Of a DNA stretch of 64,000 nucleotides, positions 8,849 to 48,630 are shown piece after piece. Source of the DNA: Candidatus Woesearchaeota archaeon (lineage in GTDB: Archaea; Nanobdellota; Nanobdellia; SCGC-AAA011-G17; UBA489); the NCBI GenBank assembly GCA_964367375.1, contig CAYIXG010000001.1:3905-67904 (forward strand), read 5' to 3'. Position 1 is the stretch's first letter. Each line of letters starts with the position of its first letter. The notes under the pieces are model-generated. The model ran no database searches. It saw nothing but the letters and a program-made list of their open reading frames with translations, and was not told the origin of the DNA. The translations under genes were made by a program, and so were the position numbers.

Positions 8849-8873
8849 AAACCTCGCTGTTTTTTGATGCAGT

Positions 8874-8960: not shown

Positions 8961-8963
8961 GAT

Positions 8964-12080: not shown

Positions 12081-13382
12081 TTATTTCTTTCCTAAACTTT
12101 TCAGCCATCGTAAGAATGCGTTGAAGAATCCTGGCTCGACGCATACTTCTCCTTTGCAGAGATTGGTAGAACATTCAAAGTTGTTGCTGCATGAGCTATC
12201 AACAGGGAGTTGTTCAAGGACGTCTCCTTCGAGAGAACAGAATGTTGTTTCTTTCCGTGTGCCTACAGTCAAACACGCGTAATTATTTTCTGTGTCGTAG
12301 CATCCTTCGCAAGGATCAAGGCACATGTTATATTTTTCTGGACAAGAATTGGAGACACATTCAAAATCGTTTTTGCATGTTTGTGTTTTTTCTTTTTGTG
12401 CAGCAAATTGGTTGTCAAGCCCGCAGTAGTAGCCGTTTTCCCGATATGCAAAGGGAACACATCTGTTATCTGCAGTCATGCATCCACTGCATCCTTGTGT
12501 TCCAAGGGTGTATGAAATGCCTGGTGTATTGATACAATTGGCTTCAACGACAGCACTTCCCATGCCGCGGCAGGTGAACTGCCAGTTTGTGAAGGGAGCT
12601 GTACTTCCTAAACCTCCATAGCCACTTAACGGCGGCCTATTTTCGTATCCTGTGGATCCTGCTTCATTGCAGCCACCTTGTCCTCCAAGTGCTATTTCTC
12701 CACTACCACAAGATGCGATTGCGCTGTACGGTTCATACACTTCTGGAGTGTATTGCTGTTTTTGTTCAAAGATGTGGTGCAGAATGGTTGTTTCTTTTGG
12801 CACGCAAAATGCCTCGACTTCTGCTTTTCCTTCTCCCGCGCATCCTGCCATCCACCCTTGCAATTCATAATAGCCGTATCCTGTTGAGGTGCCGATGCGT
12901 TGGATGCCATTAGATACAGTCATGACAATTGCATTGTTTCCTGCTGGAATGCAGCGTGCTTGTCCTCCGATGGCAATTTCATTGGTGTTGCAGTTGGATT
13001 CTGCAAAGTAGGAGTTGTCATATCTTCCAGGGTTTGTGGAGGGGGTGCGAATGCCTGCTGTTGATGGCACTGTTCCTGAAGTTGCAACGCGATAGGAGAG
13101 TGAAGATCGTGGTGCACATAATGCCTGCACAAGTGCAACGCCGTCTCCAGTGCAAGTGACTTCCCATCCTTTTCCTCCAGGGAGGGATGTGCTTGATTGG
13201 AGCACTGCTCCTTGTGCTGTTTGTGTTCCTAATTGTCTGCATTCGACAGTTGCTCCGATTGCTATTTCATCTGATTCACAGAGGGATTGTGCGGTGAAAA
13301 TTTGTGCGGAAACAATGGCACTAAAAAGAACAATAAAAATGCTTATAGTAGAGAGGATTAATTTCATAAAATAAAGAATCAA
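12081..13382 (-). CDS. Secreted Cys-rich repeat protein (three ~85-aa CxxxEIA(I/L)GG repeats plus EGF-like C-terminal Cys knots)
   Basis: Signal peptide, then repeats SLCESDEIAIGATVEC / SNCNTNEIAIGGQARC / ASCGSGEIALGGQGGC. Each repeat ends ...(A/F)(L/F)C(A/V/I)(P/N), and a tail carries ~20 Cys. Confidence 0.5.
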   Translation of the reverse strand: MILYFMKLILSTISIFIVLFSAIVSAQIFTAQSLCESDEIAIGATVECRQLGTQTAQGAVLQSSTSLPGGKGWEVTCTGDGVALVQALCAPRSSLSYRVATSGTVPSTAGIRTPSTNPGRYDNSYFAESNCNTNEIAIGGQARCIPAGNNAIVMTVSNGIQRIGTSTGYGYYELQGWMAGCAGEGKAEVEAFCVPKETTILHHIFEQKQQYTPEVYEPYSAIASCGSGEIALGGQGGCNEAGSTGYENRPPLSGYGGLGSTAPFTNWQFTCRGMGSAVVEANCINTPGISYTLGTQGCSGCMTADNRCVPFAYRENGYYCGLDNQFAAQKEKTQTCKNDFECVSNSCPEKYNMCLDPCEGCYDTENNYACLTVGTRKETTFCSLEGDVLEQLPVDSSCSNNFECSTNLCKGEVCVEPGFFNAFLRWLKSLGKK

Positions 13383-13412: not shown

Positions 13413-14339
13413 TTAAACGTCAACTTCTTTTGGAAGTGCAAAGGTCATGTCTTCAGTGGTAGTAGTAAGTGTTTCAACAGCAGCATGTGGGTATCTCAAT
13501 TTCAAGGCATCAATTGTTTCTTGGACTGCTGCTTCTAATGCAGATGCGCCTGCAGTGATTCCAATAATATGCACTTCATCCATCCAATGATAATCAATGG
13601 CAGTTGCATCAGGAATGAGATGTGCCTGAACGCCTCTATTGATTGCAGTTTCCACTAATCTGTTGGAGTTTGAGCTGGTAGTATCTCCAAGCACGAGGAT
13701 AAGTTGTGCGCGTTCTGCAAGTGCCTTGACAGAATCTTGCCTGTTTTGGGTTGCGTAGCAAATGTCATCAGTGCGGGGTGCACGAATGTTTGGAAACCGT
13801 CTGCAAAGTGCTGCAATAATGTTTCTTGTATCATCAACAGAGAGGGTTGTTTGAGTTAAATACGCAACCTTATCATGATTTGGAAGAGTAACTTTTTCAG
13901 CGTCAGCAACTGTTTCAATGAGAATCATAGGTGCATACCCCATGGTGCCGATAACTTCTTGGTGTTTTTTATGGCCAATAAGAAGAAGAGAATATCCATC
14001 GCGGTTGTAGCGAAGCGCTTCTAAGTGCACTTTTGTCACGAGAGGGCATGTTGCATCAATCATTTTGAGTTCGCGTGCTGCTGCTTCCTCTTTGACATTG
14101 GGGGAAGTGCCGTGTGCGCTGAAGATGATAAGGTTGCCAGCAGGTACTTGACCAAGAGTATCAACAAAAACAGCTCCTTTCTGTTCAAGCTCATGAATGA
14201 CTCGCTCATTATGAACTATGTGGTGTCGTACATACACAGGTGTTCCATAAATCGTGAGTGCGCGTTCAACAGTTTCAACTGCTCGTTCCACTCCTGCGCA
14301 GAATCCTCTGGGTTCTGCAAGCAATATTTTCTCAACCAT
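13413..14339 (-). CDS. ispH: 4-hydroxy-3-methylbut-2-enyl diphosphate reductase (IspH/LytB)
   Basis: Full-length 308 aa. PRGFCAGVERAV, SAHG, ATCPLVTKVH and TTSSNSNRL match the IspH core, and the three Fe-S Cys ligands are in the conserved positions. Confidence 0.85.
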   Translation of the reverse strand: MVEKILLAEPRGFCAGVERAVETVERALTIYGTPVYVRHHIVHNERVIHELEQKGAVFVDTLGQVPAGNLIIFSAHGTSPNVKEEAAARELKMIDATCPLVTKVHLEALRYNRDGYSLLLIGHKKHQEVIGTMGYAPMILIETVADAEKVTLPNHDKVAYLTQTTLSVDDTRNIIAALCRRFPNIRAPRTDDICYATQNRQDSVKALAERAQLILVLGDTTSSNSNRLVETAINRGVQAHLIPDATAIDYHWMDEVHIIGITAGASALEAAVQETIDALKLRYPHAAVETLTTTTEDMTFALPKEVDV

Positions 14340-31592: not shown

Positions 31593-32951
31593 GTGTTCAT
31601 GAACTCCTTGTTTTCTTTATATGCGCGAAAGGATGTGCAGAGGGTCATGGTGGAGTTTGCGAGGGAGAGGGAGGTTGCTGTTCTCTTTGGGGAGAATGGG
31701 TTTGGGAAGAGGCCAGACATGGTGCAGTTTGATTCTGATATTGTGGAGTTTGCAAAAGCTGGTGCAACCTCGTTTCATTTTTCTGAAGAGCGTTGGAGTG
31801 ATCCTCTTCGGTTGTCGACAGGGATGTCAAGAAAAGAGTTGGACGAGTTGCGTATCGGCTGGGATTTGGTGTTGGATATTGATTGTCCTTTTGTGGAATT
31901 TTCAAAGGTGGTTGCAGGGTTGTTAATTGAAGCGTTGCAGTTTTGTGATGTGAATCATCTGGGAATGAAATTTTCTGGGAATAAGGGGTTTCATATTATT
32001 GTTCCGTTTGAATCCTTTCCAGCAACAGTGAACAATCAGGCAGTGAGAATATTGTTTCCTGATGGGCCTCGCGTGATTGCGAAATACCTTTCCTCACTAA
32101 TTCGGGAGCCGTTGGCAACGCAGTTGTTAGCAATAAGCACGATTGGTGAAATGGCAAAAGCGACGGGAAAGCCTGAGGCTGCGTTGAAGGTGAATCACCA
32201 GTTTAATCCGTATGCTGTTGTGGAGATTGATACTATTTTGATTTCGTCTCGGCACTTGTTTCGTGCGCCGTACTCGGTGAATGAAAAGTCTGGGTTGGTG
32301 AGCGTTCCATTAAAAATGGGTGAGTTGAAGCATTTTGAGCCGCCAATGGCAAAAATAAGCAACATAAAGGAAGTTGTTTCTTTTATGGACAGGGAAAAGG
32401 CGCGTCCGGAAGAAGCGTATCATTTGCTGGTGCAGGCGTTTGATCATGAGAAGAAGCATGCATTGGTGATGGAGCAGCAGGTGCAGGGAAAAGAGGGAAG
32501 GACATTTGCAGAGGTGAAGGAGAAGGTGGGGGAGCAGTGTTTTCCGCAGTGTATGCAGAAGCTGTTGAAAGGTGTGGAGACTGACGGGAGGAAGAGGTCA
32601 TTATTTGTGTTGATCAATTTCTTGAAGAGCATGAATTATTCGATGGATGAGATTGAGCAGAAAATCATGGAGTGGAACAAAAAGAATTACGAGCCGTTGA
32701 GGGAAGGATACGTGAAGGCGCAGCTGAGTTGGCATAAGCGTCAGCAGGCGAGTGTGTTGCCTCCGAATTGTAGTCATGAGGCATATTACAAGGCGTTAGG
32801 AGTGAAGTGTGCAGAAGAAATTTGTACCAGGTGTAAGAATCCGGTGAATTACGCGTTGCGGTTGTATAGGATGCAAGCAAATGAGAAGACATCGAGAGAA
32901 AAGAAGGATGCTAGGCAGAAGAAAATAAGGAAACGATCTTCTGAAAAGTAG
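31593..32951 (+). CDS. priS: DNA primase small (catalytic) subunit PriS
   Basis: WDLVLDIDCP (catalytic DxD) and KFSGNKGFHIIVP (SGxxGxH), plus C-terminal CFPQC...CTRCKNP Zn motifs. Confidence 0.8.
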   Translation: MFMNSLFSLYARKDVQRVMVEFAREREVAVLFGENGFGKRPDMVQFDSDIVEFAKAGATSFHFSEERWSDPLRLSTGMSRKELDELRIGWDLVLDIDCPFVEFSKVVAGLLIEALQFCDVNHLGMKFSGNKGFHIIVPFESFPATVNNQAVRILFPDGPRVIAKYLSSLIREPLATQLLAISTIGEMAKATGKPEAALKVNHQFNPYAVVEIDTILISSRHLFRAPYSVNEKSGLVSVPLKMGELKHFEPPMAKISNIKEVVSFMDREKARPEEAYHLLVQAFDHEKKHALVMEQQVQGKEGRTFAEVKEKVGEQCFPQCMQKLLKGVETDGRKRSLFVLINFLKSMNYSMDEIEQKIMEWNKKNYEPLREGYVKAQLSWHKRQQASVLPPNCSHEAYYKALGVKCAEEICTRCKNPVNYALRLYRMQANEKTSREKKDARQKKIRKRSSEK

Positions 32952-34254: not shown

Positions 34255-35037
34255 TTATGCTGCCCAGCAGTAGGTGTCTTGTGTTTGTGGTTTGATGCAG
34301 GAACATTCAGTCACGATATAAGCAATATCGATGCACACATCTGGGTGTTGTGTTTGCGTGAATGTAGGTGCAGAAGGATCCACATCTTGCTTGTACGCAT
34401 TATACATGAAGAATCCTCCATCATTCACATCAAACAATGCTTCATGCACCACTGAGGATGCAGGCACAAACTCTCCGCCTGCTTGATGACACACATCAGA
34501 AGGATCATTTCTGCATACTACTGTCTTTGGAGGGGCAATCGCATCATAGGATAAGGTGACTCCTTCTTGAATTCCCTCATGCGTTCCGAGCACTTCAAAC
34601 GTGCGCAACACCGTTTGACAACTCCCTTCAAAGCGGATCAGTGTCGGGTTCACTGCAACAAAGGACACAGAATCCTGGTCAGTTGCCGCGTCTTGAAGTT
34701 CGTTGTACGCGGGAAGTGGTTTTCCAAGATTGTCTTCTGGCCATGGCCCTTTGGGCACTTCTTCTATGTACTCTGGGATGCATGCGGTAAATCCGTTTGT
34801 ATTCTGCTGATCAAACATGAGGTCTTGTAAGATGCCGTCAGCAAGCGATAACCCATACAACGGATCACCTGTTATTTCATCAGCGCTTTCATCAACTCCC
34901 ATTCCAGTCACAACATCTGTCTTTTCTGTTTTTGTGGATAATAATACTGCGCTCAGAATGACAATTCCAAGCACGAGGAGTGTTACCATCTTATTGTTTA
35001 TTCCTGTTTCCTTATGCATTGGTTTTTGTTGGTTCAT
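34255..35037 (-). CDS. Membrane-anchored secreted protein
   Basis: Start placed at the ATG (35037-35035) preceding the TM segment MVTLLVLGIVILSAVLL. The upstream part of the six-frame ORF overlaps the preceding gene and is probably not translated. Confidence 0.4.
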   Translation of the reverse strand: MNQQKPMHKETGINNKMVTLLVLGIVILSAVLLSTKTEKTDVVTGMGVDESADEITGDPLYGLSLADGILQDLMFDQQNTNGFTACIPEYIEEVPKGPWPEDNLGKPLPAYNELQDAATDQDSVSFVAVNPTLIRFEGSCQTVLRTFEVLGTHEGIQEGVTLSYDAIAPPKTVVCRNDPSDVCHQAGGEFVPASSVVHEALFDVNDGGFFMYNAYKQDVDPSAPTFTQTQHPDVCIDIAYIVTECSCIKPQTQDTYCWAA

Positions 35038-35044
35038 TTTCTTT

Positions 35045-36580
35045 TTAGTCTCCTCCTTGTTTGTCTGGGAGGGTGTTGGTTGGGCATTGGCAGGTGGTGC
35101 TGCAGGTTCCTTGTATTCCTTTTGCATCTGTGCAGGGAGTGCTTGGCGGGTCACATTGTTCACCAATATCAATCTTGCTGTTGCCACAGTTCGGTTGACA
35201 CGTGCAACTGCTTGTTTTGCAGTATAAGCCATTGCCACACGCACCTGGCTGACAACCCGGAGTTTTTGAATCCCCATCACATCCAACGCCTGTTGTTCCT
35301 GTTGGAGGTGGTGTTGTAAGGGCTACAACTCCTCCAGAACCTATCATCCATCCAAAGAATCGTTTCCACCATGATGGTCTGGGAGCTGTTTGGCCTGGAC
35401 TTGTTGTTCCAGGGGCTGTTGTTCCTGGACTTGTTGTTCCTGGTGTGGTGGTGCCTGAGCTTGATTTTCCTGTGCTTCCTCCCTTAATAATTTTAGTATT
35501 TCCTCCTCCTGTTTGGCCTCGAGGTATGCACTCGCAGTCCATAGTATTCATGATAATGGATGCGCATGAGGGGCGTGAAGAAAAGAAGAGTGTTCTCAGG
35601 TGAAGGTTATCATCATTGATAGGACCGTTAAGTACGATGTTGAGAATCATTTGTTGAAAAGGGCTATAGCCAAGTGTTAAGTGGGGATATTGTTGACTCA
35701 TATAATTTTGTATGTCAGTAAGCGCAGCATAAAAATCATTTGGTGTATTAATGGGAGCAACAGGGACAAGTTGCAAATGATTTACTGCTTGCGCATATGG
35801 GTTGCAGAATCCTGGAAGATTGGTAGAAGTAGTGCATTGGTCAGATTTACAAGTTACTGGCATTGCAGAAGGAATGCCTACCATTCCTGGAGCGTCGATG
35901 GGAAAACCTTCATTAATTGAAAATCCGCGCACTCGGCGCCCTTGCGCAGTTTCTTGTTGGACCTCTGCACAGGAAATACCAGAGTGAAAGACAGCACGAA
36001 CGTCGTAATGTGCGTCCGGCCATGCAAGAACGCAGCTTCCTCTGTTTCGTGGTTGTGAACTCTGAGATAATTGAACGCCTGCGTTTATTCGATTTTCAAA
36101 CTCTTCTAAAGCAGTGGGTGGATCTGCTGGTTCGGGGTCTGTGGACCCTGTTCCTGTGGTGGAAGAGCCTGCAGGAGTGTATACAGGTGGAGGTTGTAAT
36201 TGTCCTGTTGGTGGCACATAGGGAGCAAGTACAGGAGGTGGAGGATTACATCCTCCCATAAAATTGTTCAAAAGATTATACAGCAAGTATCCTGCAGCGA
36301 ATCCTCCAGATGCGGATGTTCGTGTGGGCGTACGACCTCCTACTCGTCCAGGAGGCTGAAGTTGTGATGCACCTGGTGGAGGATTAATCGGACCATACAC
36401 TGGTCCACTTGGACCCCATCCTGAAGGTACTTGCACTGCTGGTGGTTGAATGACTACTGGACTCGTTGCCGCAACATCAGGAGAGGAAATGGTAAATATC
36501 GATAGAAACGTAATACCTGACAAAGCGCCTATCAGAATAATGGTGAATAAATGAGAGTGATGACTGTCCTCTTTTTTCAT
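35045..36580 (-). CDS. Secreted Pro/Gly/Thr-rich surface protein with Cys-rich C-terminus
   Basis: Signal/anchor helix, then long PxxP/GT-rich low-complexity linkers (TTPGTTSPGTTAPGTTSPG) and a C-terminal CxC-rich module. Confidence 0.45.
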   Translation of the reverse strand: MKKEDSHHSHLFTIILIGALSGITFLSIFTISSPDVAATSPVVIQPPAVQVPSGWGPSGPVYGPINPPPGASQLQPPGRVGGRTPTRTSASGGFAAGYLLYNLLNNFMGGCNPPPPVLAPYVPPTGQLQPPPVYTPAGSSTTGTGSTDPEPADPPTALEEFENRINAGVQLSQSSQPRNRGSCVLAWPDAHYDVRAVFHSGISCAEVQQETAQGRRVRGFSINEGFPIDAPGMVGIPSAMPVTCKSDQCTTSTNLPGFCNPYAQAVNHLQLVPVAPINTPNDFYAALTDIQNYMSQQYPHLTLGYSPFQQMILNIVLNGPINDDNLHLRTLFFSSRPSCASIIMNTMDCECIPRGQTGGGNTKIIKGGSTGKSSSGTTTPGTTSPGTTAPGTTSPGQTAPRPSWWKRFFGWMIGSGGVVALTTPPPTGTTGVGCDGDSKTPGCQPGACGNGLYCKTSSCTCQPNCGNSKIDIGEQCDPPSTPCTDAKGIQGTCSTTCQCPTNTLPDKQGGD

Positions 36581-36751
36581 ATTCTTTTATTTTCTTCTTT
36601 ATATATAAACATTTCGAACAAAAAAGTGGTATAATGCGAACAGAACAATGAGAATGCGCTGCGACTTGATTAATAATATGCTAGCAGGCTAATAGCAATC
36701 TTTATTAATGTGTAATGAGGAAGAGAAAAGAAATAAAAGAGGGAATTCTGT

Positions 36752-38551
36752 ATGAAAAAAGCGCTCCTGAGGTTGTTTTTCCTTTGTGGTATCCTTCTCG
36801 GATTTCTTGGTGTGGTGGGTGCGCAGTCCTCATTTGATGCGCAAAAGGGGTATGAATGGCTGGTAAGCCAATGTCAGAATGGGAATTGTGACGGCGATCT
36901 TATTGCAACTGCCTTTTACACATTAGCAATGAAGGATGCGGGTCAAGTGGACTATGCAGAGGAAGGTCTTGATTATATAAAGTCGCGAAAGGCGAATAAT
37001 GAGGCGTGTTGGCCTTCAGGGAGCTGTAAGGTGAAGGAAACCGCGTTTGCGCTGTGGGTGTTGAAAGAGTTTGGTGAGGATGTTGATGCAGGTGATCGGT
37101 GGTTGAATGATGCCTTGTCTGCAGCGCCGAGTTTGCAGGACTTCTGGTTTCTTGAGGTAGTCACTTCAAATAATGGGACGTGCAAAATTTCCTATGCTCT
37201 CGGTAATAATGACACTATTCAGCGTGATGTGAGTGTGAACGCGGGAAGGTTTCCTGATTGTCCCGGAGCTGTCAACACATTCTTTAATCTGAACACGTGT
37301 TTGCAGAATAATCTGTTGAATAATAATCCTGCATTGGAGCTGGATATTAATTGCAATCAGCTTGGTCCGAGCACGATTTTGTCAGTGATCTTCAATACTG
37401 CGTCATTGTATTATGTGATTGAGGAGGCGGAAACGTCAAGGAAAGTGATTACAATCCAGAATGGGTGTTTGGGAACGACAAAGAATAGCGCGTGCAATTA
37501 TGACACGTCTTTGTTTTCAAACTGGCTATTGTCTGCTATTGGTTCTGATACGACGGTGTTGTTGTATGTGAAGAACAATGCAGATGAGTTGAAAGCAGTG
37601 GATAACAGCTTGTTGTATTTGTCTGCAAGTCAGGCATTGCGGCAGAAGTATTTAGATAATTTAATTGGGTTGCAGAGGAATGATGGGAGTTTTAACAAGC
37701 AGGTGTTTGAGACAGCAATTGCAACGCTTGCGTTGCGTCAGTCTGGCCAAGGTCAAGCCTTGACAAGTGCTGTTGATTGGTTGAAGTCGAAGCAGCGCCC
37801 TGATGGTTCGTGGGATAACAGCGAGTTGAAGACTGCTGCAACGTTATATGCTGCATTTACGAGCGAGGCGATTTCCTTGCCTCCGATTGGAAGCGCGGGC
37901 CCTGGAAAAAGTCCTGGTCCTTCTTCTGAGCCAGGGTTTTGTGGTGATGGCACCTGTGACCCTGATGAGAACTCGGTGTCATGTGCATCAGATTGTCCTT
38001 CAAGTGTGTGCGTGGTGAATGGTATTTGTGAAACATATGCGAATGAGGATTCTTCAAATTGTCAGCAGGATTGTACGTGTGGTGATGGTATTTGTGATGA
38101 TGCAGAGTCCACTGCATCTTGTACAGAGGATTGCGGTGAGCCGACAACGCAGCAGCCTGCAGTGTGCGGCAATGGCGTGCTTGAGGGTGCGGAAGAGTGT
38201 GATATTGACACTGCAACAGGATTTGGCGATGATAGTGCATGTCCAGGGAAGTGCACGGCAAGTTGTTCGTGTGGTGAGAAGAAGAAGGGCTTCCCTTGGT
38301 GGATTACTATTGTCCTCGCGATTGCAGTGGTTGTTGCAATAGTGATGTATATGCGATTTAAAGGCTCGCCTGGAGGAAAGAGGAAGCCGTCTGGATTTTC
38401 ATTTGGTGCAGATATAAAGATGCCGAAAATGCCTGCATCAAGGACGCAGGTACGGTATCCGCAACAGCAGCAGTCGCAAAAGAGTTCAAAGGTTGAGGAT
38501 GAGCTTGATAAGTCTATTGAGGAAGCGAAGAAATTATTGGGAAAGATGTAG
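36752..38551 (+). CDS. Type-I membrane surface protein with alpha/alpha-toroid (prenyltransferase/terpene-cyclase-like QW) repeats and CGDGxCD repeats
   Basis: Signal peptide, then repeated ...A(F/L)(A/Y)LWVL... and KQRPDGSWDN QW-like motifs. Three CGDG(T/I)CD...C modules follow, then a TM helix WWITIVLAIAVVVAIVMYM and a basic tail. Confidence 0.45.
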   Translation: MKKALLRLFFLCGILLGFLGVVGAQSSFDAQKGYEWLVSQCQNGNCDGDLIATAFYTLAMKDAGQVDYAEEGLDYIKSRKANNEACWPSGSCKVKETAFALWVLKEFGEDVDAGDRWLNDALSAAPSLQDFWFLEVVTSNNGTCKISYALGNNDTIQRDVSVNAGRFPDCPGAVNTFFNLNTCLQNNLLNNNPALELDINCNQLGPSTILSVIFNTASLYYVIEEAETSRKVITIQNGCLGTTKNSACNYDTSLFSNWLLSAIGSDTTVLLYVKNNADELKAVDNSLLYLSASQALRQKYLDNLIGLQRNDGSFNKQVFETAIATLALRQSGQGQALTSAVDWLKSKQRPDGSWDNSELKTAATLYAAFTSEAISLPPIGSAGPGKSPGPSSEPGFCGDGTCDPDENSVSCASDCPSSVCVVNGICETYANEDSSNCQQDCTCGDGICDDAESTASCTEDCGEPTTQQPAVCGNGVLEGAEECDIDTATGFGDDSACPGKCTASCSCGEKKKGFPWWITIVLAIAVVVAIVMYMRFKGSPGGKRKPSGFSFGADIKMPKMPASRTQVRYPQQQQSQKSSKVEDELDKSIEEAKKLLGKM

Positions 38552-38572
38552 CCAATATATTTATTAAGCGTC

Positions 38573-39853
38573 TTGTTCTGGATAGGGTGCATGAATAAAG
38601 AGGTAATATTTGTCTTGTTTTTCGTAGCAGCATGTCCTTTGGTGTTTGCGCAGGAGCAGGTGAGTGTGCAGGTGTATAAAGAGTTGTATGTTCCTGGAGA
38701 GTCAGTGCAAGCAGAAATAAGGGTGAATGGTTCTGTAAGTGAAATTGATGAGCATCATATTGAGTTGCACAATGAACAAGGGCAAAAGATAGCAATAGCC
38801 CCCTTTCTTGATGTGATTGAAAATGGCCATTTGTTTTTGGTGTTTGATCTTCCTCTGGGTGCTGAGGAAGGCGTGTATGCCTTGAAGGTTGTTGACATTC
38901 CTTTTCAAGTGAACAATGTGCTGCAATTAGTGACTGCAGAAAAGCCTCTGAGTGTTGCTCCTGCAACCCCTGTTATTTCTCTCTTTCCAGGGTTTGTGAA
39001 GGTTGATCGCGAGAGAGTGTCAGTGAATGTGCGGTTAACAAACAAAGGAGGTTCAGCGCAGGTGCAGGTGGCTGCTCCTGAATTTGTTGCTCATGTGTAT
39101 CAAACACCGCAAGTGTTGAATCAAGGAGCGACAAGGCTGTTCAAGTTTGCAATTGATGCTTCTGCAGTGGCAGAGTCGACGAAAGAGTTCATAACCTTTT
39201 CATATGCAAACAAAGAGTACAAGCTTCCTCTGTTTATTTTCAAAGAAGAGACTGGAGAGAGTATTTGGGAGGATTTCTTTTTTGTCACAACAACCTCTTT
39301 GATCAACAAAACAATAGGAGAGGATGAAATGGTAGAAAGGGTTTTGAGAGTGAAGAATAATGGAAGTGCTCAGATTGAACTGTCTCTTCACGCAACTCCT
39401 GAAGTAAGTGAGGTGGTTGAGGTGTCTCCATCAAACATAATACTTGCACCGGGTGAAGAAAAGGAGGTTCTTGTTTCTCTCAATAAAGAGAAGGATGCGA
39501 TTCAAGGGATATACAGAGGTTCAATTGTGGCTGCAACAACAAAGAAGGAGGTTGTGTTTGGTGTGGTTGTTGAGGTCAGAGGGTCTGAGGTGGGAATCAT
39601 CACAAAACAGGATATCTTTGATGATCTTCCTCTTGAAGTTCCGGACAAGAAAGAGCAAAAGGGGATTCAGGTGATTGATTTTAATTTTACAAGCACTCAA
39701 GAAGCAGAGCCTTCTGATAATAAGAGGAAGGGTGGTTTTCTTGTGCTTTCTCTTGTTATTGTTCTTCTTCTCCTTTTTGTGTTTCTGATAAAGAAGAAGA
39801 ATGTGAAAAGGACAACGTTTCAGCAGTATATCTCAGGGATGAAAAAGAGGTAA
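38573..39853 (+). CDS. Secreted adhesin-like protein with CARDB/DUF11-like Ig-fold repeats and C-terminal TM anchor
   Basis: Signal peptide and two or more ~110-aa beta-rich repeats (V.N.G......L.......V.P....L.PGEEKEV.V.L), then a C-terminal TM FLVLSLVIVLLLLFVFLI followed by KKKN. Confidence 0.4.
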   Translation: MFWIGCMNKEVIFVLFFVAACPLVFAQEQVSVQVYKELYVPGESVQAEIRVNGSVSEIDEHHIELHNEQGQKIAIAPFLDVIENGHLFLVFDLPLGAEEGVYALKVVDIPFQVNNVLQLVTAEKPLSVAPATPVISLFPGFVKVDRERVSVNVRLTNKGGSAQVQVAAPEFVAHVYQTPQVLNQGATRLFKFAIDASAVAESTKEFITFSYANKEYKLPLFIFKEETGESIWEDFFFVTTTSLINKTIGEDEMVERVLRVKNNGSAQIELSLHATPEVSEVVEVSPSNIILAPGEEKEVLVSLNKEKDAIQGIYRGSIVAATTKKEVVFGVVVEVRGSEVGIITKQDIFDDLPLEVPDKKEQKGIQVIDFNFTSTQEAEPSDNKRKGGFLVLSLVIVLLLLFVFLIKKKNVKRTTFQQYISGMKKR

Positions 39854-39857
39854 GGGT

Positions 39858-40298
39858 CTATTTTTTGTCTTCTTTTTTTATTTCTTTAAGTTCGCCTCGC
39901 TCTATTTTTCTCTTGAACAACAAGTTTTCCGCGTACACGTTCTTGAAGACCATGTCGAATTTGTGCATGTGGGCGAGGAGGTCGTTCATGAGGTTGTCAA
40001 TGTCTTTGTTTTTCACGAGCAGCGATGTGGGTTGGATGACTTCAATGGAGCTGGGCATGAAGTCAAAGCAGAAGCTGATGATGTCTTGCACTTTTTTAAC
40101 GTGGAATTCCGCTTCGATGAATCCTGTCCAGAGGGGCTTTTTTTCGTATTCAACAGGGTCGAATTTCTGTTCTTTGATGAGGGTGAGATAGTCTTGCTGT
40201 TTGAGTTTTTCAAGAACTGTGTTGAGTGCTTTGTCAACATGCTCTTTTGGTCCGCCGAGGATTTCGATAATGCTACGAACAGTGATGGTTTCGTCCAT
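39858..40298 (-). CDS. Hypothetical cytoplasmic protein
   Basis: 146 aa, no motif recognised. Confidence 0.3.
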   Translation of the reverse strand: MDETITVRSIIEILGGPKEHVDKALNTVLEKLKQQDYLTLIKEQKFDPVEYEKKPLWTGFIEAEFHVKKVQDIISFCFDFMPSSIEVIQPTSLLVKNKDIDNLMNDLLAHMHKFDMVFKNVYAENLLFKRKIERGELKEIKKEDKK

Positions 40299-40300
40299 GG

Positions 40301-41779
40301 TTAATCTCGTTTGATAATAAGGTATCCAATAATGACGATGCTGAGGATGCCAAAAATGGTCAGCATGAGTGGTTTCATGCGGGTTGCTGGCGATTGGTAG
40401 ACTACTGCGCCTGTCACAGCATCCATGGAATGGTTGCGAGAAGTGGTGTTTATAATGGTTTCGGGCTCTGTGGAGGGTGTGGCAAGAAATGTGGTGCTTG
40501 TTTCTCTGGAAGGGCAGGATCCTTTTTTTGTTCCTGCAATAATGAGATCTTTGGTGATGGTAAAGCCAAGTCCGCGAACAAGGAGGGTATACGTTCCATT
40601 CGGGATGTGGAGGTCGCAGTTTGAAGGAATGACAATGGGAAGTCTCAGGAGGAGGGGTGTTTTTTCTTCAAGAATGTCTGCATGAACGTCCTCGCTGAGG
40701 TTTGTGATGGAAAGAGTGATGCTGCTTTCTTCAGTGTTTCCTTTGTAAACATCAAGAGTAACATAAATGGTTGATCCAAAAGGAATGGTTTTGTTGGTGC
40801 TGAGAGAAAGGTCTTTGAGAATGACAAGTGATTGGTCTTCTGCAGAAGGTTCTACAGTAAGTCTATTTTCCTCTCCAGGTGTAGGGTCACTCAGTACGAA
40901 TGTGTCTTCTATGGTTGCCCATGATTTTCCTTCTTGAGAGTCTTCATAGCTGGCTTCTGTGATAATGGTTTCATCATCTTTCAGCATGACGTGTTCAAAT
41001 CCTTTATTATTAAGGATGCTTCGCCCATTAAAATACACAGCAAGATAGGCGTCTGAGTGAATCGTGGTGCTTGTAATTACGTTTGCGCTGGTGATCGTAA
41101 CGCAATTATTTCCTGCGTCACATATACGGAGTCCGGAAACGTCAACAGTATTCTCTTGCGCATACAGTTCAACCCATTCTCCATCTGGAGTTTCTGCCGC
41201 GTCTTGTCCTTTGGGGTTGGGCATGATTTCAGTTATTTGTAATGAGGAGTAATCTTGAGGAGGTTGATTGAGAGTAACATTGGGTTCTGAGCTCGTGTTT
41301 TGTTGTGGGATGATATTTTCTTCTCCTGGTGTGGGTTCGCATTCAAAGATAGTTAAGGGAGGGGTGTTGCAGAGGGATTTGTTATTGTTGTTTCCTCCCA
41401 TGCTGTTGTCGTAGCTTATGGAGTGAATGATTTGTGTTGTTTGGTCTCGGATGATAATCGTATCTTGATCATTGTTGAGGTTGTTGCCTATAGAGTTTCC
41501 AGCGGAGTAGATGCTTGCATTAATGTCAGTAAAGTTGAATCCATCTTCAACAATAAGGTAAAAAGTGCTGTCTCCATCTTGGATAAGCGTTAAAGAGTCG
41601 CTGCTGGTTGCGTCTTCAATGGTGTAAAGGCTGAGGTTGATTTCTTCGTCAGAATAGATTTCAACATATTCTTTGGTGTTGTCATTTCCTTCAGGATTGT
41701 ACATGATTTCGGTGATGAAGGTTGCTGCAAATGCTTGGGGAATGATAATAAGAAGGATAATGAAGAGGAATTGTTTCAT
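40301..41779 (-). CDS. Surface protein with two lamin-tail-domain (LTD) modules and C-terminal TM anchor
   Basis: ATFITEIMYNPEGNDNTKEYVEIYSDEEINLSLYTI and LQITEIMPNPKGQDAAETPDGEWVELYAQ match the LTD signature (ITE(I/V)MxNP.G.D...E(W/Y)(V/I)E). C-terminal TM LMLTIFGILSIVIIGYLII. Confidence 0.55.
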   Translation of the reverse strand: MKQFLFIILLIIIPQAFAATFITEIMYNPEGNDNTKEYVEIYSDEEINLSLYTIEDATSSDSLTLIQDGDSTFYLIVEDGFNFTDINASIYSAGNSIGNNLNNDQDTIIIRDQTTQIIHSISYDNSMGGNNNNKSLCNTPPLTIFECEPTPGEENIIPQQNTSSEPNVTLNQPPQDYSSLQITEIMPNPKGQDAAETPDGEWVELYAQENTVDVSGLRICDAGNNCVTITSANVITSTTIHSDAYLAVYFNGRSILNNKGFEHVMLKDDETIITEASYEDSQEGKSWATIEDTFVLSDPTPGEENRLTVEPSAEDQSLVILKDLSLSTNKTIPFGSTIYVTLDVYKGNTEESSITLSITNLSEDVHADILEEKTPLLLRLPIVIPSNCDLHIPNGTYTLLVRGLGFTITKDLIIAGTKKGSCPSRETSTTFLATPSTEPETIINTTSRNHSMDAVTGAVVYQSPATRMKPLMLTIFGILSIVIIGYLIIKRD

Positions 41780-41970
41780 GAAAAGAGTGGTGAGGAGAAG
41801 GTTAAAAAGAGTTTATGAATGTGCAAGAAAAGAGTTTCGGAAAAAGGGGAAAGATTACGGGAAGGTGGTGGTTTCATAATTTTAGATAGGTGTAAGAAGG
41901 AAAATAGTGTGCTGAAACGTTTATTGCTTCTTTTTTGTTATTAAAAGGGAATAGAAAGGTTTATTAATTT

Positions 41971-42384
41971 TTGATTATGAACAAAGGTATGGTTTTGAAA
42001 AAAGAGGAGAATAAAAAGAGAGTTATATATCTTTTTATAGGAGGAGTGTGCTTAGTAATCCTGTTGGTGCTTTTAAAGGCAAATAGTGGAGAAAGAGAGC
42101 TAAGGAGCGGGAAAGTGAACACGCCTGCCGGTTTTGCGACCGTCTGCCAAGGAGGAAACGCGTATTCTTATTTTTGCTGTTATGGAACAGGTGCGAATGG
42201 AAAAGCTGTAAGTGTAAAAGCGAATGTGAAAAATGGTAATCTTCCAACTGCAGGGGATGTGAATGGGGATGGGAAAGCGGAGACGGTTCCTCAAGTAGTG
42301 TGTTATACTGTTATTACAACTATGCATAAAGATACAACAAAGATTGAACAGTCAAAAGAGGTTACGTGTAACGATCAATGTTAA
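41971..42384 (+). CDS. Small membrane-anchored Cys-containing secreted protein (first of four tandem genes)
   Basis: 137 aa; TM VIYLFIGGVCLVILLVLL, then 8 Cys. Confidence 0.4.
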   Translation: MIMNKGMVLKKEENKKRVIYLFIGGVCLVILLVLLKANSGERELRSGKVNTPAGFATVCQGGNAYSYFCCYGTGANGKAVSVKANVKNGNLPTAGDVNGDGKAETVPQVVCYTVITTMHKDTTKIEQSKEVTCNDQC

Positions 42385-42393
42385 CGTGAAAAA

Positions 42394-42849
42394 ATGATAA
42401 AAAAAGAGGGAGTGATGGTTGGTGGATGTTTTCTCTTAGTCTTTTTATTCCTTTTTGGCCAGTCAGAAGAGGTAACAGCACTACAATGTAGTGGGGGGTT
42501 ACCCTCATCATCGGCAGAAGTATGCTCAGAGGCATCTAATGAAGGTGGTGGCATTACAGTGAACTGCTTCGCTACAGATACACAAGCGCAGTGTGATGCG
42601 CGATTGTTTAAGTTGGCAGGAGAAGCAAACGCAGCAAAGGGAAAAAAATGTTCTCCAGGATGTGTTCCTGTGGTGGATCATGCTCCTGGTTCAAATCCAA
42701 CCTCAAGTTCCAGTGGCTCCTGGCCTCCAGTAACAGCTGGGGGGACAAGGTGTGTGAAAGTGAATTTTGCCTGTCCTTGTGTTGAAGAAGAGTTAGGAGA
42801 AAATGAGCTTCAGGGTAAATATGCAGGATTTTGTGATTTGTTAGCATAA
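42394..42849 (+). CDS. Small secreted Cys-rich protein (second of four)
   Basis: 151 aa; signal peptide and ~12 Cys. The intergenic gap from the previous gene is only 9 nt. Confidence 0.4.
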   Translation: MIKKEGVMVGGCFLLVFLFLFGQSEEVTALQCSGGLPSSSAEVCSEASNEGGGITVNCFATDTQAQCDARLFKLAGEANAAKGKKCSPGCVPVVDHAPGSNPTSSSSGSWPPVTAGGTRCVKVNFACPCVEEELGENELQGKYAGFCDLLA

Positions 42850-42850
42850 C

Positions 42851-43582
42851 ATGATACATAACAATAAGGTGATTGTAACAGTACTGCTCATGATAGCTGC
42901 TGCTCTTTTTATTCAGTCATATGCTGTGAAAGATGGAGAAGTGCAGGATAATGTCCTGACAGGATATGCAACAACAGATCAGTGTCCGGAAACGAATCCA
43001 AATGTGAATGCATGTCCTCCAAAGATTCAAAAGAAGGAATGTTATCCTGTTGCAAAGTCTCCTTTTGAGCCAGGAACTGAGGAAGAGGTTGAAGTTTCTT
43101 GTACTGCAACTACGACAATTGGGAGCACAATACAGGTGCTAATGTCATACCTTGGAGGGGCGTACACAGCGACATATACAGGAACAGTGATTGCAGGTCC
43201 TACTCCAGCAACAGGAACAGGTGGGACATTTTATACGTGTTTAGTGCTTATTACACATCAAGATTCAGTTCCGCCAGAAACGCGGAATGCGCTTGCGTGT
43301 GATGCGGCAAAGAATAATGCAAATGCAAAATTAACATCAACTACGGGTTCAGGCGAACAGCAAGCGAAGCTTGATGCACTGTGTCAATGGTTTGCAAGTC
43401 AAGGTGGCGTAAATTCGGGGTGTACTGGTGAACGAAGGCCTAAGCCAACAATAAGTAATTGTTTTGCTTCTGCAGATGGTTCTCAGCAGTGTGTGTGCAT
43501 GGAATGGCATTGCAAGTTTAGTAGAGAAGCGTACCAACAGTCACTACAGCAAAATGCTGGTGCTACTGGAAGTGGAGACTGA
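42851..43582 (+). CDS. Secreted Cys-rich protein (third of four; paralogue of the fourth)
   Basis: 243 aa; N-terminus MIHNNKVIVTVLLMIAAALFIQSYAVKDGE, 12 Cys. Confidence 0.4.
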   Translation: MIHNNKVIVTVLLMIAAALFIQSYAVKDGEVQDNVLTGYATTDQCPETNPNVNACPPKIQKKECYPVAKSPFEPGTEEEVEVSCTATTTIGSTIQVLMSYLGGAYTATYTGTVIAGPTPATGTGGTFYTCLVLITHQDSVPPETRNALACDAAKNNANAKLTSTTGSGEQQAKLDALCQWFASQGGVNSGCTGERRPKPTISNCFASADGSQQCVCMEWHCKFSREAYQQSLQQNAGATGSGD

Positions 43583-43585
43583 TAG

Positions 43586-44314
43586 ATGAATAAGCAGCCA
43601 GTAATTATAATACTAATAATTGTTGCTGCAGCTCTTATCCTGCAGACATATGCTGAGAAGGGTTCTGCATTCTCTGGTTTTGCTTCAATTGCTGATTGTC
43701 CTGCAAGTGTGAAGGTGCCTGTGTGCACTCCTATTGGAACAATTCCATATAACCCTCCTGGGGAGGGTGAAGCAACAACAAGCACAAAAGCATGGAAAGT
43801 GCTTTGTCTGGTAAGCAGTAGTTATTGTGGCGCAAATGCTGCTCTTCCTCTATGTGCAAATGCAGCAGCTGTAAATGCTTTGCCAGGTCAACTCATGCCT
43901 CTTCCAGTGTCTGGCGCTTCTCCTGGTGCTAATGGACAGCCAGTTGGTCCAATTGGGGGCACTATATCTGCAACGCATCTACCACCAAAAAGGCAGCGTG
44001 CAGGAAATTTTTGTCAGATATCTATTGAAGTGACGGTAACAACAACCAAGGGAACGTATGATGATAAGCTGAATGAGATGAAGAAGAATGCATGTGCTGC
44101 TGCAAAGGCGTCTGCTGCGAATGCTGTAGCGAACAATGTTTGTGCGGAGTTGCAAATAGAATGTAGCAAGCATAATATTCAGGGGAAGACTTGTATTCCT
44201 GATAATAGCAAGAAGATAACTGATTGCGGAAATGCGGACGGAAGCTGTGATGAGAAGGACGGGAGCATGTGCACATATGTGTGCGGTGGATGTAAATGGC
44301 AGGAAACTAAATAG
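43586..44314 (+). CDS. Secreted Cys-rich protein (fourth of four; paralogue of the third)
   Basis: 242 aa; N-terminus MNKQPVIIILIIVAAALILQTYAEKGSA has the same architecture as the preceding gene. 16 Cys. Confidence 0.4.
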   Translation: MNKQPVIIILIIVAAALILQTYAEKGSAFSGFASIADCPASVKVPVCTPIGTIPYNPPGEGEATTSTKAWKVLCLVSSSYCGANAALPLCANAAAVNALPGQLMPLPVSGASPGANGQPVGPIGGTISATHLPPKRQRAGNFCQISIEVTVTTTKGTYDDKLNEMKKNACAAAKASAANAVANNVCAELQIECSKHNIQGKTCIPDNSKKITDCGNADGSCDEKDGSMCTYVCGGCKWQETK

Positions 44315-44328: not shown

Positions 44329-46632
44329 TTATTCTTCTCGAAACTTTTTGTATCTGTTTTTCAGAGTAGTAAATTCAAGGACAGGAAGATTATCAGTGTT
44401 GACAAGGGTGATGTTCTGCACATACTCATGCAGTTCTTCGTTTGTTCGGGTGTAGAGTGCAGTCATAAACGTTTTGGTGGTGTTGTATTCTTCCCACTGA
44501 AGATCAGCAAGTTCTTTTTTAACGCCCTCTGGAATAGTGTTGAGATTCTTCTGGAGTGTTTCCATAACAGAGAGGGGTGTTGCTGTTGCGACAACAACCA
44601 CATCTCCCCTGCTGTCTTTGTCTGCGCCGAGGTTGAATTCATATGCATAAGGAAACACGCTGAGGACAGTGTTGATGAAGAGCTGGTAGTCTTTTTCAGA
44701 CATTTCATATCTGGGCACCCATTGAGATAATATCCCTTTTTCATTCAAGTGGTTTCGTGCAGCCTGGTAAAATTCTTTGGTGAAGAGATTTGATACACCT
44801 GAAACCCAGATGTTTGGGGGTTCTGAAACAATGACATCATATTTCTCTTGTGTTGTTTCGATGTAGTTTCTGCCGTCTGCGAGGATAAGATTGACTTTCT
44901 CATTCTTGAGCACATCTTCGTTGTAGGATGCAATCACGGTGCCGACAGCTTCTGCGACTGCAGGATCTATTTCAATGACATCAATGGTTGGAATGGAATG
45001 TTTAACTGCAGATGCTGTGCTGAATCCTCCGCCGAGGCCGATGATTGCCATCTGTGCGGGACTGGGGTGAAGGAGCAAGGGGATATGAGTGAGCATGGCT
45101 TGTGTTAATTGGTCGCCTAAAGATGCGTCTGCTTTTCCGTTATTCTTCAGAATAATGTTTGTTCCTTGCCAGACAACGCTCACTTGTCCATAGGGGCTGT
45201 TTTTCAGAAAGACAATGCTGTCTCTTCCTTCCTTTGCATTGATGTAGCTTTCAATGGAATCATAGCGAGTGCCATGGTAATACACGCCTCCAAAGATGTA
45301 ATCTGAGTTGTGGAGGGAGGTGAAGAATATTGCTCCAATGATGAGGATGAAAAAGAGTGCTTCTGCAACGTTGATGCGTATGGGTTTTTCCGCATAAATG
45401 AGGAAGAATGCTGCTGCAATGAAGAGGTAAATGCTTGCCGCAAATGTAGATGAGTAATTAAGTCCAAAGATTGGGATGATGGCAAATCCTGCAAGGAATG
45501 CGCCAAAAATGGCTCCGCAGGAATTGATTGCATACAGTTTGCCGACGCCTTCTCCGACTTTTTCGTGGTGGAGAACAATGGAGCTGAGAAGAGGTAAAGT
45601 GATTCCCATGAGAAACGTGGGAATCAGAAGGATTGCAATCAAGGTGAGTGTTTGCAGCGAAAGGAAGGTGGCATAGGTGGGAGAGGCGAAGAAAATGGTC
45701 AAGAACCATCGGTCAAGGTAGGGAAAGACTTTGATGAGGGTGATGCCAAAGATGCCTATGAAAAATTCAACCATGGCAAATGCAGTGATTTTATGGGTTA
45801 TCTTGTGCTGCCATTTAGCATAACAAAAGCTGCCAGCACCAAGTCCGAGTAAGAAGCTGATAAGGACAATGCCAAAGGAGTACACACCACTTCCATAAAT
45901 GAGAGAAACAAATCGTGTCCAGATGACTTGGAACATGAGTGCTGCGCATCCCGAAAGAAAAAAGAGGAAGAGCACGCTTCGAGAAATGGGGGAAGAGTGG
46001 GTGGTTGCTGATGGTTCTTGTGGTGATCGAATGGGAAAGGTGAGGATGCCTGCGATGAAGTTGGCGAGAGACGCAATGATTGATGTGGTCAGGAATCCGA
46101 ATGAGGGGATGAAGAAGAAGATGGCTATAAGGACTCCTAATGATCCGCCAATGGTGTCTATTGCATAGGGGATGCCGACCGAAGATCCAATAGCGCGGTG
46201 CTGTTCATGGTAGAGTTTGATGATCATGGGAAATACTGCGCCAATGAGGAACGTGGGAATAATGAGGACAAGTGCAGCAAGAAAGAATTGCACGAGCCAG
46301 AAGAGGAAGAGTGAGGAGAAAGCGTTGTGAAGAGCAGTATAGAGGTGTCTGATGAGGGGGAAAAGAATAAGAGTTAAGAAGCAGCTGATGCCAATGCCAA
46401 AAGAGAAATAGCTGACGAGTCGTGATTTGTTTGCTGATCGTTCGATAAGCTTCCCTCCATAATAGCCGCCGAGGGCGAGCCCTGCCATGAAGACAGTGAG
46501 CACAGTGCTGACTGCGATGGCGCTTGTGCCAAAGATGTGGGATAATTCTCGTGACCACACAATTTCGTAGACAAGTGCGCTGAGTGAGGTGAAAAAGATG
46601 GTAAAAAGATAAATAAAAGTCTTGGAATGCAT
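44329..46632 (-). CDS. Fused polytopic membrane domain + spermidine-synthase-like (aminopropyltransferase-fold) protein
   Basis: 767 aa; ~14 N-terminal TM helices in two MFS-like halves. The C-terminal domain has the Rossmann motif IIGLGGGFSTASAV and ...VIVSEPPNIWVSGVSNLFTKEFY, typical of spermidine synthase. Confidence 0.6.
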   Translation of the reverse strand: MHSKTFIYLFTIFFTSLSALVYEIVWSRELSHIFGTSAIAVSTVLTVFMAGLALGGYYGGKLIERSANKSRLVSYFSFGIGISCFLTLILFPLIRHLYTALHNAFSSLFLFWLVQFFLAALVLIIPTFLIGAVFPMIIKLYHEQHRAIGSSVGIPYAIDTIGGSLGVLIAIFFFIPSFGFLTTSIIASLANFIAGILTFPIRSPQEPSATTHSSPISRSVLFLFFLSGCAALMFQVIWTRFVSLIYGSGVYSFGIVLISFLLGLGAGSFCYAKWQHKITHKITAFAMVEFFIGIFGITLIKVFPYLDRWFLTIFFASPTYATFLSLQTLTLIAILLIPTFLMGITLPLLSSIVLHHEKVGEGVGKLYAINSCGAIFGAFLAGFAIIPIFGLNYSSTFAASIYLFIAAAFFLIYAEKPIRINVAEALFFILIIGAIFFTSLHNSDYIFGGVYYHGTRYDSIESYINAKEGRDSIVFLKNSPYGQVSVVWQGTNIILKNNGKADASLGDQLTQAMLTHIPLLLHPSPAQMAIIGLGGGFSTASAVKHSIPTIDVIEIDPAVAEAVGTVIASYNEDVLKNEKVNLILADGRNYIETTQEKYDVIVSEPPNIWVSGVSNLFTKEFYQAARNHLNEKGILSQWVPRYEMSEKDYQLFINTVLSVFPYAYEFNLGADKDSRGDVVVVATATPLSVMETLQKNLNTIPEGVKKELADLQWEEYNTTKTFMTALYTRTNEELHEYVQNITLVNTDNLPVLEFTTLKNRYKKFREE

Positions 46633-47976: not shown

Positions 47977-48630
47977 TTATTGTTTCTCACCAATTAATAG
48001 AATAAACTTCCCTTTTGCTTTGAAACCATATTCTGGAGTATGAAGTAGATTATCTTCATACGTTGATTCTTGCATAGTTATTGAATAATTTTTAAGAAAT
48101 CTTTTTAATAATTTTTTAGCAGCATTCATTGTATATAATGTACTATATTTTGATTCATCTTGTTTGTTAAAAGGTTCTCTTTGAATATCAGTAGCAAAAT
48201 CAAGTATAATCATTCCTTTCTTTTTCAAAATCCTATTTATCTCTAAAAAAATAAATTCTAATTGTTTTTCTTTGAATAAATGTAAAGTTCCTGTACAAAA
48301 TACTCCATCAAATGACTTATCATCAAAAGGAAATGTTGTAGTTATATCAAATTGTTTCAATTCTACTTTCTGTTTTTGTTTTTCAGATAATTTTGATTCA
48401 ATTTTTTTTAATTCATTTGTATTTAAATCAGATACAGTTAGTTTATTTACTTTCTCAAGCAATTCAGGAAGATATCTACCATCTCCTGCTGCGAGATCAA
48501 GCCAAGTTCCTTTCATTTCAGTTTGTTTTAGTAATCGAAGAGTTAATACTTCTCCTTCACCCCAGATTGATTTGTTTAACATAACTATAATTAAAAAATA
48601 GAGATTAATAATCTTTCGGAGAATTAACAC
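47977..48630 (-). CDS. Class I SAM-dependent methyltransferase, in a ~27%-GC island
   Basis: Motif I WLDLAAGDGRY, motif post-I LTVSDLN, and motif II/III region DGVFCTGTLHLF...KKGMIILDF. The base composition is strikingly more AT-rich than the flanking genes. Confidence 0.6.
   Translation of the reverse strand: MLILRKIINLYFLIIVMLNKSIWGEGEVLTLRLLKQTEMKGTWLDLAAGDGRYLPELLEKVNKLTVSDLNTNELKKIESKLSEKQKQKVELKQFDITTTFPFDDKSFDGVFCTGTLHLFKEKQLEFIFLEINRILKKKGMIILDFATDIQREPFNKQDESKYSTLYTMNAAKKLLKRFLKNYSITMQESTYEDNLLHTPEYGFKAKGKFILLIGEKQ

Follow-up and report, generated by a model that had tools for sequence, protein, structure and literature searches.

What kind of proteins is encoded by four small, tightly packed genes of a Woesearchaeota archaeon when their sequences recall no recognized family? 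The genes, here named g1 to g4, lie between positions 41971 and 44314 on the plus strand of a 64,000-nucleotide stretch of Candidatus Woesearchaeota archaeon contig CAYIXG010000001.1, which we call the window. The original prediction regarded them as co-transcribed genes for secreted or membrane-anchored Cys-rich proteins and named adhesins, pilin-like subunits, and secreted effectors as candidate roles. We consider it fairly probable that g1–g4 constitute a lineage-specific orphan operon of groundwater Woesearchaeota/Nanoarchaeia, whose products are exported, probably disulfide-bonded, and act together.

Coding status and transcription of the cluster

The four open reading frames (ORFs) follow one another on the plus strand with spacers of 9, 1, and 3 nucleotides, and the coordinates and product lengths that had been proposed (137, 151, 243, and 242 amino acids) agree with ours. 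The last three genes are g2 (42394–42849, 151 amino acids), g3 (42851–43582, 243 amino acids), and g4 (43586–44314, 242 amino acids). For g1, a TTG codon at 41971 gives the 137-residue form (41971–42384), an ATG at 41977 gives 135 residues, and an ATG at 41989 gives 131 residues (41989–42384).

All four are real coding genes. At the base composition of the window, the probability that a frame remains open for 242–243 codons is about 5e-8 per start. Moreover, the annotated frame of every gene has the best codon-usage score among the six frames, as judged with a model trained on the confidently identified genes of the window. The scores are positive but modest (0.08–0.13 bits per codon), and about 0.3 ORFs of the length of g1 are expected by chance per 64 kb.

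A TATA-like box (TTTATTAA) at 41960–41967 on the plus strand is probably the single promoter of the operon, as judged from its motif. It is located 29 nucleotides before the ATG at 41989, which is the modal spacing in this genome. When TATA-like boxes were mapped for 27 window genes, 11 hits fell in the bin from −30 to −26, and no other 5-nucleotide bin held more than three. This clustering at approximately −29 from start codons has the appearance of a leaderless mRNA pattern. Because the box is at the modal distance, the 131-residue form beginning with ATG 41989 is the most likely g1 product. One public gene call for g1 uses this ATG, and the other, with a 135-residue product, fits the ATG at 41977. 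No TATA-like box is present within 80 nucleotides upstream of g2, g3, or g4. The intergenic gaps are too small to accommodate separate promoters, and therefore these three genes are predicted to reside on the same mRNA as g1. The arrangement fits a single leaderless operon as far as such motifs can indicate.

Export signals, cysteines, and sequons

Each protein carries exactly one hydrophobic segment, at its N-terminus, as had been predicted. The n-regions have net charges of +1 to +3. The h-regions span 14–18 residues, within the rough range of 10–20 for Sec type I signals, and have mean Kyte–Doolittle hydropathy values of 2.5–3.7. Small-x-small sites, defined by small, uncharged residues at −3 and −1 of a cut 3–7 residues beyond the core, occur just past the hydrophobic core in g3 (S-Y-A/V; the signal peptide ends QSYA/VK, where the slash marks the predicted cut), in g4 (T-Y-A/E; QTYA/EK), and in g2, where an n-region of MIKKE and an h-region of 17 residues are followed by two candidates, LFG/Q and VTA/L. 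The g1 protein has the n-region MVLKKEENKKR (+3), an h-region of 18 residues, and a weak (−3,−1) site, LKA/N. Similar sites end other exported proteins of the window (AFGA/V, VSA/Q, VGA/Q, VFA/Q, and AFA/A), and SecY is also encoded there. By these rules, Sec type I signals can be assigned to all four proteins. Because its cleavage site is weak, g1 may stay anchored in the membrane by an uncleaved signal. By the positive-inside rule, the C-terminal parts of all four proteins are expected to be outside the cell.

Other routes of export or attachment left no recognizable signature. A FlaFind-type regular expression for class III signals ([KRDE][GA] immediately before the hydrophobic segment; after Szabo et al. 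2007) has no match within the first 45 residues of g1–g4, whichever candidate start is used. Likewise, no [KR]-[GA] cleavage motif precedes the hydrophobic segment in g1–g4. This test is discriminating because genuine class III N-termini (MSKRG/AAE...) are present on other Cys-rich proteins of related Woesearchaeota. Lipoboxes also occur on Cys-rich proteins of these relatives, and no lipobox of the form [LVI][ASTVI][GAS]C is found at the signal-peptide ends of g1–g4. The four proteins also have no twin-arginine translocation (Tat) motif and no C-terminal hydrophobic anchor, which two neighboring proteins do carry: the Lamin-tail-domain (LTD) protein and Ig426.

The number of cysteines had been put at 8–16 per protein. 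A recount gives totals of 7 (g1), 11 (g2), 12 (g3), and 15 (g4). Of these, 6, 10, 12, and 15, respectively, belong to the mature parts, where the g1 value refers to residues past the hydrophobic segment. The counts for the mature parts of g1–g3 are even, which may hint at disulfides. Gly, Ala, and Thr are moderately abundant in the mature parts, in keeping with the earlier description, and g2 is acidic. Cys-richness is not specific to these genes; it is a general trait of exported proteins here. Across the window, the Cys share of predicted exported proteins is 3.9%, compared with 1.4% for cytoplasmic proteins.

An unexpected feature of the exported proteins is their content of N-x-S/T sequons. 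The g1–g4 proteins contain none, although their own composition predicts 6.2 (P = 0.001). When the Cys-rich exported proteins of the window are pooled, two sequons are observed and 21.2 expected (P = 1.6e-7). Exported proteins of relatives that have more than 5% Cys show the same depletion (12 observed, 30.7 expected; P = 1e-4), whereas those with 3.5% Cys or less are enriched (184 observed, 126.6 expected; P = 1e-6). For cytoplasmic proteins, the ratio of observed to expected sequons is about 0.93–1.2 at any Cys content. The loci that exhibit this split among exported proteins are window positions 7571–8422, 12081–13382 (minus strand), 35045–36580 (minus strand), 36752–38551, 38573–39853, and 40301–41779 (minus strand), together with loci L008–L167 of related organisms. 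Two Cys-poor, C-terminally anchored proteins of the window are sequon-enriched, namely LTD (11 versus 7.2 expected) and Ig426 (4 versus 1.8).

The lack of sequons in g1–g4 appears to indicate selection against N-glycosylation. Such avoidance makes sense only if the proteins meet an external glycosylation machinery, and the depletion therefore lends indirect support to their export and to a class of extracellular proteins that are stabilized by disulfides and not glycosylated.

Relationships of the four proteins and of their locus

The original prediction described g3 and g4 as clearly paralogous. This description holds for the signal peptide and the first ∼70 mature residues only, and the remaining two-thirds of the proteins show no significant similarity. 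Among 55 pairs of signal peptides from the window, those of g3 and g4 are the most similar (score of 61; the runner-up scores 37, and the median is 22). Over the first ∼70 mature residues, the two proteins align with z = 5.7, a score reached in 0 of 1000 shuffles. Beyond this N-terminal third, z falls to 1.4 for the middle and 0.3 for the C-terminal part, and a phmmer (HMMER) comparison of the mature parts alone returns E = 2. The sole notable direct DNA repeat between the two genes is the segment coding for the signal peptide, at 42882–42930 in g3 and 43611–43659 in g4 on the plus strand (73% DNA identity), which is probably a trace of tandem duplication. Thus, such a duplication is the best reading for g3 and g4, with clear paralogy limited to the N-terminal third. 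The pair is saturated for the purpose of estimating nonsynonymous to synonymous substitution ratios (dN/dS). No relation of g1 and g2 to each other or to g3 and g4 is detectable. A profile combining g3 and g4 was discarded as a search query because MAFFT and Smith–Waterman alignments conflict over the C-terminal half.

In the AlphaFold2 models of both g3 and g4, a beta block is followed by a long helix and then by a C-terminal beta region. The confidence of both models is too low for their folds to be compared. Fold searches made with them returned nothing specific, and g3 had no fold match.

As the original prediction had stated, none of the four proteins contains a recognized family motif: no match exceeds threshold in Pfam, NCBIfam, PHROGs, or PADLOC. 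The only matches are sub-threshold, with 16 bits for FG-GAP (cut-off 22.1) and 13.8 bits for EGF_MSP1_1 (cut-off 27). Neither of the two results named in advance as contrary to the original prediction, absence of a signal peptide or membership of an abundant known domain family, was obtained. The sole family match of g1 is to FG-GAP (Pfam, E = 0.011, below cut-off) and falls on its DVNGDGK loop. This loop, GDVNGDGKAE, spans residues ∼88–97 of the 137-residue form (window 42250–42300) and resembles the Ca2+-binding DxNxDG motif.

Sequences of g3 and g4 have no match in the PDB. Searches of 5.8 billion clustered proteins with g2 and g3 recovered only identical copies or the queries themselves. 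These identical copies come solely from assemblies of Hainich groundwater well H51 (0.1 and 0.2 μm filter fractions), among them an NCBI contig of 216 kb. A word-indexed search of a large database with g4 yielded no match, and HMMER, run exhaustively with the same query against 1.84 billion representatives, yielded four. Three of these were dismissed as artefacts of repeat summation, being large tandem-repeat proteins with 7–13 bits per repeat and per-domain E values of 1e3 to 1e8. The fourth is a 67-residue fragment with 94% identity, encoded on the coverage-2 contig L003 (European Nucleotide Archive ERZ1292641, 1–1922).

Contig L003 agrees with the window only across its last 496 nucleotides. 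It links the final 270 nucleotides of g3 and the start of g4 to an unrelated gene for an ABC-2 permease. All six of its mismatches to the window are near the contig end, and one of them creates a stop codon. We rejected L003 as a strain variant: the contig is probably an assembly chimera, and we attribute its mismatches to errors of sequencing. The faulty 67-residue fragment serves as the database representative of the cluster to which g4 belongs, which is probably why g4 did not retrieve itself in the word-indexed search.

Viral contigs also contain no relative of g1–g4; a peptide pattern representing the g1 loop found matches there, none of which is a relative. Literature searches revealed no account of such proteins, or of a relationship between sequons and Cys, in archaea. 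Collectively, from searches that extended to large databases for g2–g4 and to family libraries, local loci, and viral contigs for g1, the four proteins appear to be lineage-specific orphans that fall outside any known adhesin or pilin family. They are so far unique sequences of a familiar kind: small exported Cys-rich orphans.

The source organism conforms to the small-genome archaeon that had been proposed. It is a DPANN archaeon, and a nearby class II aminoacyl-tRNA synthetase (Pfam tRNA-synt_2, D/K/N family) has its best matches, at no more than 66% identity, in metagenome-assembled genomes of Woesearchaeota/Nanoarchaeia. Other archaeal markers in the window are a fused PriS–PriL primase, a Sec61-type SecY, TFB, and a tRNA that probably contains an intron. 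The primase is a single ORF (31593–32951) that holds the domains of both the small and the large subunit. This fused arrangement has been reported for Nanoarchaeota/DPANN.

Upstream of g1 and divergent from it is the gene for the LTD surface protein with its C-terminal anchor (40301–41779, minus strand). Downstream of g4 and convergent with it is a fused MFS/spermidine synthase gene (44329–46632, minus strand), beyond which lies a thymidine kinase gene; a methyltransferase gene is also among the neighbors. There are no genes for pilins, PilB/PilC, or prepilin peptidase near g1–g4.

Genome contigs scanned with the MFS/spermidine synthase gene provided no syntenic locus. Scans with the class II aminoacyl-tRNA synthetase provided 160 loci (1.18 Mb) at 47%–66% identity, five of which retain the synthetase together with a block of LTD, p146, Ig-like, and p599 genes. 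In these five loci, the interval that corresponds to g1–g4 is occupied by genes unrelated to them, which encode a resolvase of the Hjc type, a transposase-like product, a ZIP-like permease, and a 79-residue Cys-rich lipoprotein-like product. Relatives of g1–g4 were found nowhere in the 1.18 Mb of related Woesearchaeota DNA by tblastn, phmmer --max, hmmsearch, or hhalign.

The block adjoining this variable interval, which is conserved across Woesearchaeota, occupies window positions 34255–41779, and its counterparts are at 14258–19190 of L096, 14326–18682 of L090, and 14326–15887 of L093. It comprises LTD or another anchored surface protein, the cytoplasmic p146 (130–146 amino acids), an anchored Ig-like protein, and p599, a Cys-rich exported protein of 599 amino acids with weak matches to thioester-domain and terpene-cyclase-like proteins. 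Directly downstream of the same synthetase, relatives carry small Cys-rich lipoprotein-like ORFs that are unrelated in sequence to g1–g4. Among these are the 79-residue ORF, with 16 Cys (L093, 11461–11700), and a family of ∼228 residues, also with 16 Cys (L060, 4752–5444; L100, 9305–9991; L114, 11789–12472).

The GC skew at third codon positions (GC3 skew) of g1–g4 is +0.30 to +0.66, and because it fits the strand asymmetry seen across the window, the genes are long-term residents rather than recent acquisitions. A mobile-element or viral origin was rejected on the same grounds and for want of any match to integrase or phage families. A diversity-generating retroelement was likewise rejected, since neither a template-like repeat nor a reverse transcriptase is present. 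Window GC skew is 0.2–0.38 over most of positions 1–64000, and the cumulative skew shows a monotonic rise that no switch point interrupts. When read on the plus strand, GC3 skew is +0.3 to +0.7 for genes of both strands, so the bias is mutational rather than a property of coding. A methyltransferase gene (47977–48630, minus strand) is alone in being reversed (−0.47) among 20 genes tested, which suggests a recent inversion or acquisition.

Elsewhere in the window, a full-length homologue of LytB/IspH, an enzyme of the bacterial-type methylerythritol phosphate (MEP) isoprenoid pathway, is encoded at 13413–14339 on the minus strand (Pfam E = 1e-89). Two unusual tRNA-like genes are adjacent to each other at 8873–9100. 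ARAGORN assigns a 4-base anticodon to the first (8873–8961), and the second (8964–9100) is an Rfam tRNA match of 137 nucleotides that probably contains an intron.

Competing explanations and biological implications

Small secreted cysteine-rich proteins (SSCPs) are known from host-associated eukaryotic microbes. The likeness of g1–g4 to these, and to nodule-type Cys-rich peptides, is one of functional category and not of homologous family. Shared features are an N-terminal Sec signal, small size of the mature part, numerous Cys residues that presumably form disulfides, lineage specificity, tandem duplication, and the lack of recognizable domains. The four proteins differ from SSCPs in belonging to an archaeon and in having mature parts at the large end of the range (about 100–220 amino acids).

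Closer to home, other exported Cys-rich proteins of Woesearchaeota (families A–E in loci L009–L156 and window ORFs 12081–13382, 35045–36580, and 36752–38551) have a signal peptide or lipobox, 4%–10% Cys, almost no sequons, and, in the small ones, 130–230 residues. However, BLAST, hmmsearch, and hhalign (HH probabilities <1%) detect no homology between these proteins and g1–g4, and several of them are lipoprotein-like, unlike the four proteins examined here. For g1, the resemblance of GDVNGDGKAE to the Ca2+-binding loop DxNxDGxxD/E of FG-GAP and dockerin proteins exists at the level of the motif only. Unlike those proteins, g1 offers a single 16-residue match that scores below the Pfam cut-off, and it has no repeat architecture.

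Four other explanations can be weighed against an operon of exported, disulfide-bonded orphans. Type IV pilin-like proteins are also small and exported, have an N-terminal hydrophobic segment, and are often encoded in tandem. This makes subunits of a pilus or pilin-like fibre with class III signals an obvious candidate for a co-transcribed cluster such as g1–g4, the more so as true class III N-termini occur on Cys-rich proteins of related Woesearchaeota loci (L045, L051, and L104). However, the class III pattern and the [KR]-[GA] site before the core are both missing from g1–g4, the small-x-small sites after the core have the type I arrangement, no sequence or profile similarity to those pilin-like families exists, and no pilus assembly gene is nearby. 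We therefore reject the pilin-like reading that had been suggested, and consider its chance of being correct to be exceedingly small.

Small disulfide-rich secreted proteins in variable, lineage-specific loci typify effectors and toxins. The g1–g4 genes, which are orphans in a nonsyntenic interval, could accordingly be regarded as toxin-, bacteriocin-, or archaeocin-like antagonists or effectors, with g1 or g2 as an accessory or immunity component; sequon avoidance would leave such a diffusible protein unglycosylated. This explanation is unlikely given that no toxin, immunity, peptidoglycan-hydrolase, or defence family is matched and the adjacent genes include none dedicated to transport or processing. 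Furthermore, mature parts of 100–220 residues exceed typical bacteriocins, and with export signals on all four proteins, none resembles a cytoplasmic immunity protein.

The cysteines might instead bind metals (Zn, Fe, or Cu) in extracellular metal-binding or redox proteins, or the proteins might be signal-anchored with another topology. We hold either to be quite unlikely, even though a Dsb or VKOR gene is not seen in the window, the Cys count of g4 is odd, its C-terminus (CTYVCGGCKW) contains C-x3-C-x2-C, and g3 contains C-x-C-x4-C. No CxxCH haem motif, known metal-binding family, or ferredoxin-like spacing is found, the Cys residues are spread along the entire mature chain as in disulfide-stabilized domains, and the C-terminal parts are predicted to be outside.

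It is very unlikely that some or all of the ORFs are nonfunctional, either decaying or arising de novo, and are open by chance in a variable region. Consistent with this idea, about 15 billion proteins include no homologue except the identical copies from one well, g1 is short enough to be approached by chance, and the codon-usage scores are modest. Yet chance would have to produce four successive ORFs on one strand, 1–9 nucleotides apart, each with a complete n/h/c signal peptide, and a promoter box placed correctly before them. It would also have to account for the improbable lengths of g3 and g4 and for the best score of the correct frame in all four genes. Finally, the Cys numbers of g1–g3 are even, and the depletion of sequons points to selection on the protein sequence.

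Several points weigh against the interpretation we favor. Both the operon and export are assigned by sequence rules, and the signal calls in particular come from explicit rules and not from SignalP or another trained predictor. The only signals of purifying selection are codon usage and sequon depletion, with no orthologues to compare. The number of Cys residues in g4 is odd, and the AlphaFold2 confidence values (predicted local distance difference test, pLDDT) are only 43.5 for g3 and 48 for g4. Neither a Dsb- or VKOR-type disulfide enzyme nor an AglB gene is present in the window, although the missing Dsb/VKOR says little because 64 kb is a small part of the genome. The homology searches with g1 covered exact-match look-up, local loci, viral contigs, and family libraries, whereas those in large databases were made with g2–g4. 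Finally, the idea of a complex or of interaction with a partner is speculative, and derives from the genomic context.

The scheme that we favor for an operon of exported orphan proteins begins at the promoter at 41960–41967, which would give rise to a leaderless transcript starting at ATG 41989, with g2–g4 translated from the same mRNA. The g2–g4 proteins would be translocated by SecYEG and then released by signal peptidase I, whereas g1 may remain anchored. Outside the cell, the 6, 10, 12, and 15 Cys residues would form intramolecular disulfides that stabilize small alpha+beta domains, and the mature proteins would remain unglycosylated. The g3 and g4 genes would have arisen by tandem duplication, after which their N-terminal thirds stayed recognizable and the remainder diverged past detection. 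More speculatively, the four products could be strain-specific, nonglycosylated extracellular or surface proteins that act jointly, perhaps as a complex at the cell envelope. They might take part in contacts with a partner cell or the environment, because in this DPANN archaeon their genes occupy a variable slot next to the conserved block for surface proteins that are anchored and predicted to be glycosylated.

DPANN archaea probably rely on direct physical contact with other cells, and the majority of the proteins that they secrete or display at the surface lack an assigned function. The g1–g4 genes offer a well-delimited test case for expression and localization: one predicted promoter, four predicted exported proteins, and no relatives. 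A bolder proposal is that the extracellular proteome of Woesearchaeota, and maybe of DPANN archaea, falls into two chemical classes. Proteins of the first class would be Cys-poor, heavily N-glycosylated, and C-terminally anchored, and those of the second would be Cys-rich, disulfide-stabilized, and actively kept free of sequons. The g1–g4 genes, located in a hypervariable slot beside the conserved surface-protein block, would then be a strain-specific four-subunit module of the second class that sets partner or host specificity. We give this proposal as a whole, including both classes, only a slim chance of being right.

The four genes themselves are ordinary orphans typical of DPANN genomes, and the lead of wider scope is the split of exported proteins by Cys and sequon content. 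Should this split be confirmed across the genome, the glycosylated and nonglycosylated proteins of archaeal secretomes could be told apart by a simple sequence rule, and the split would be indirect evidence for the formation of disulfides outside the cell.

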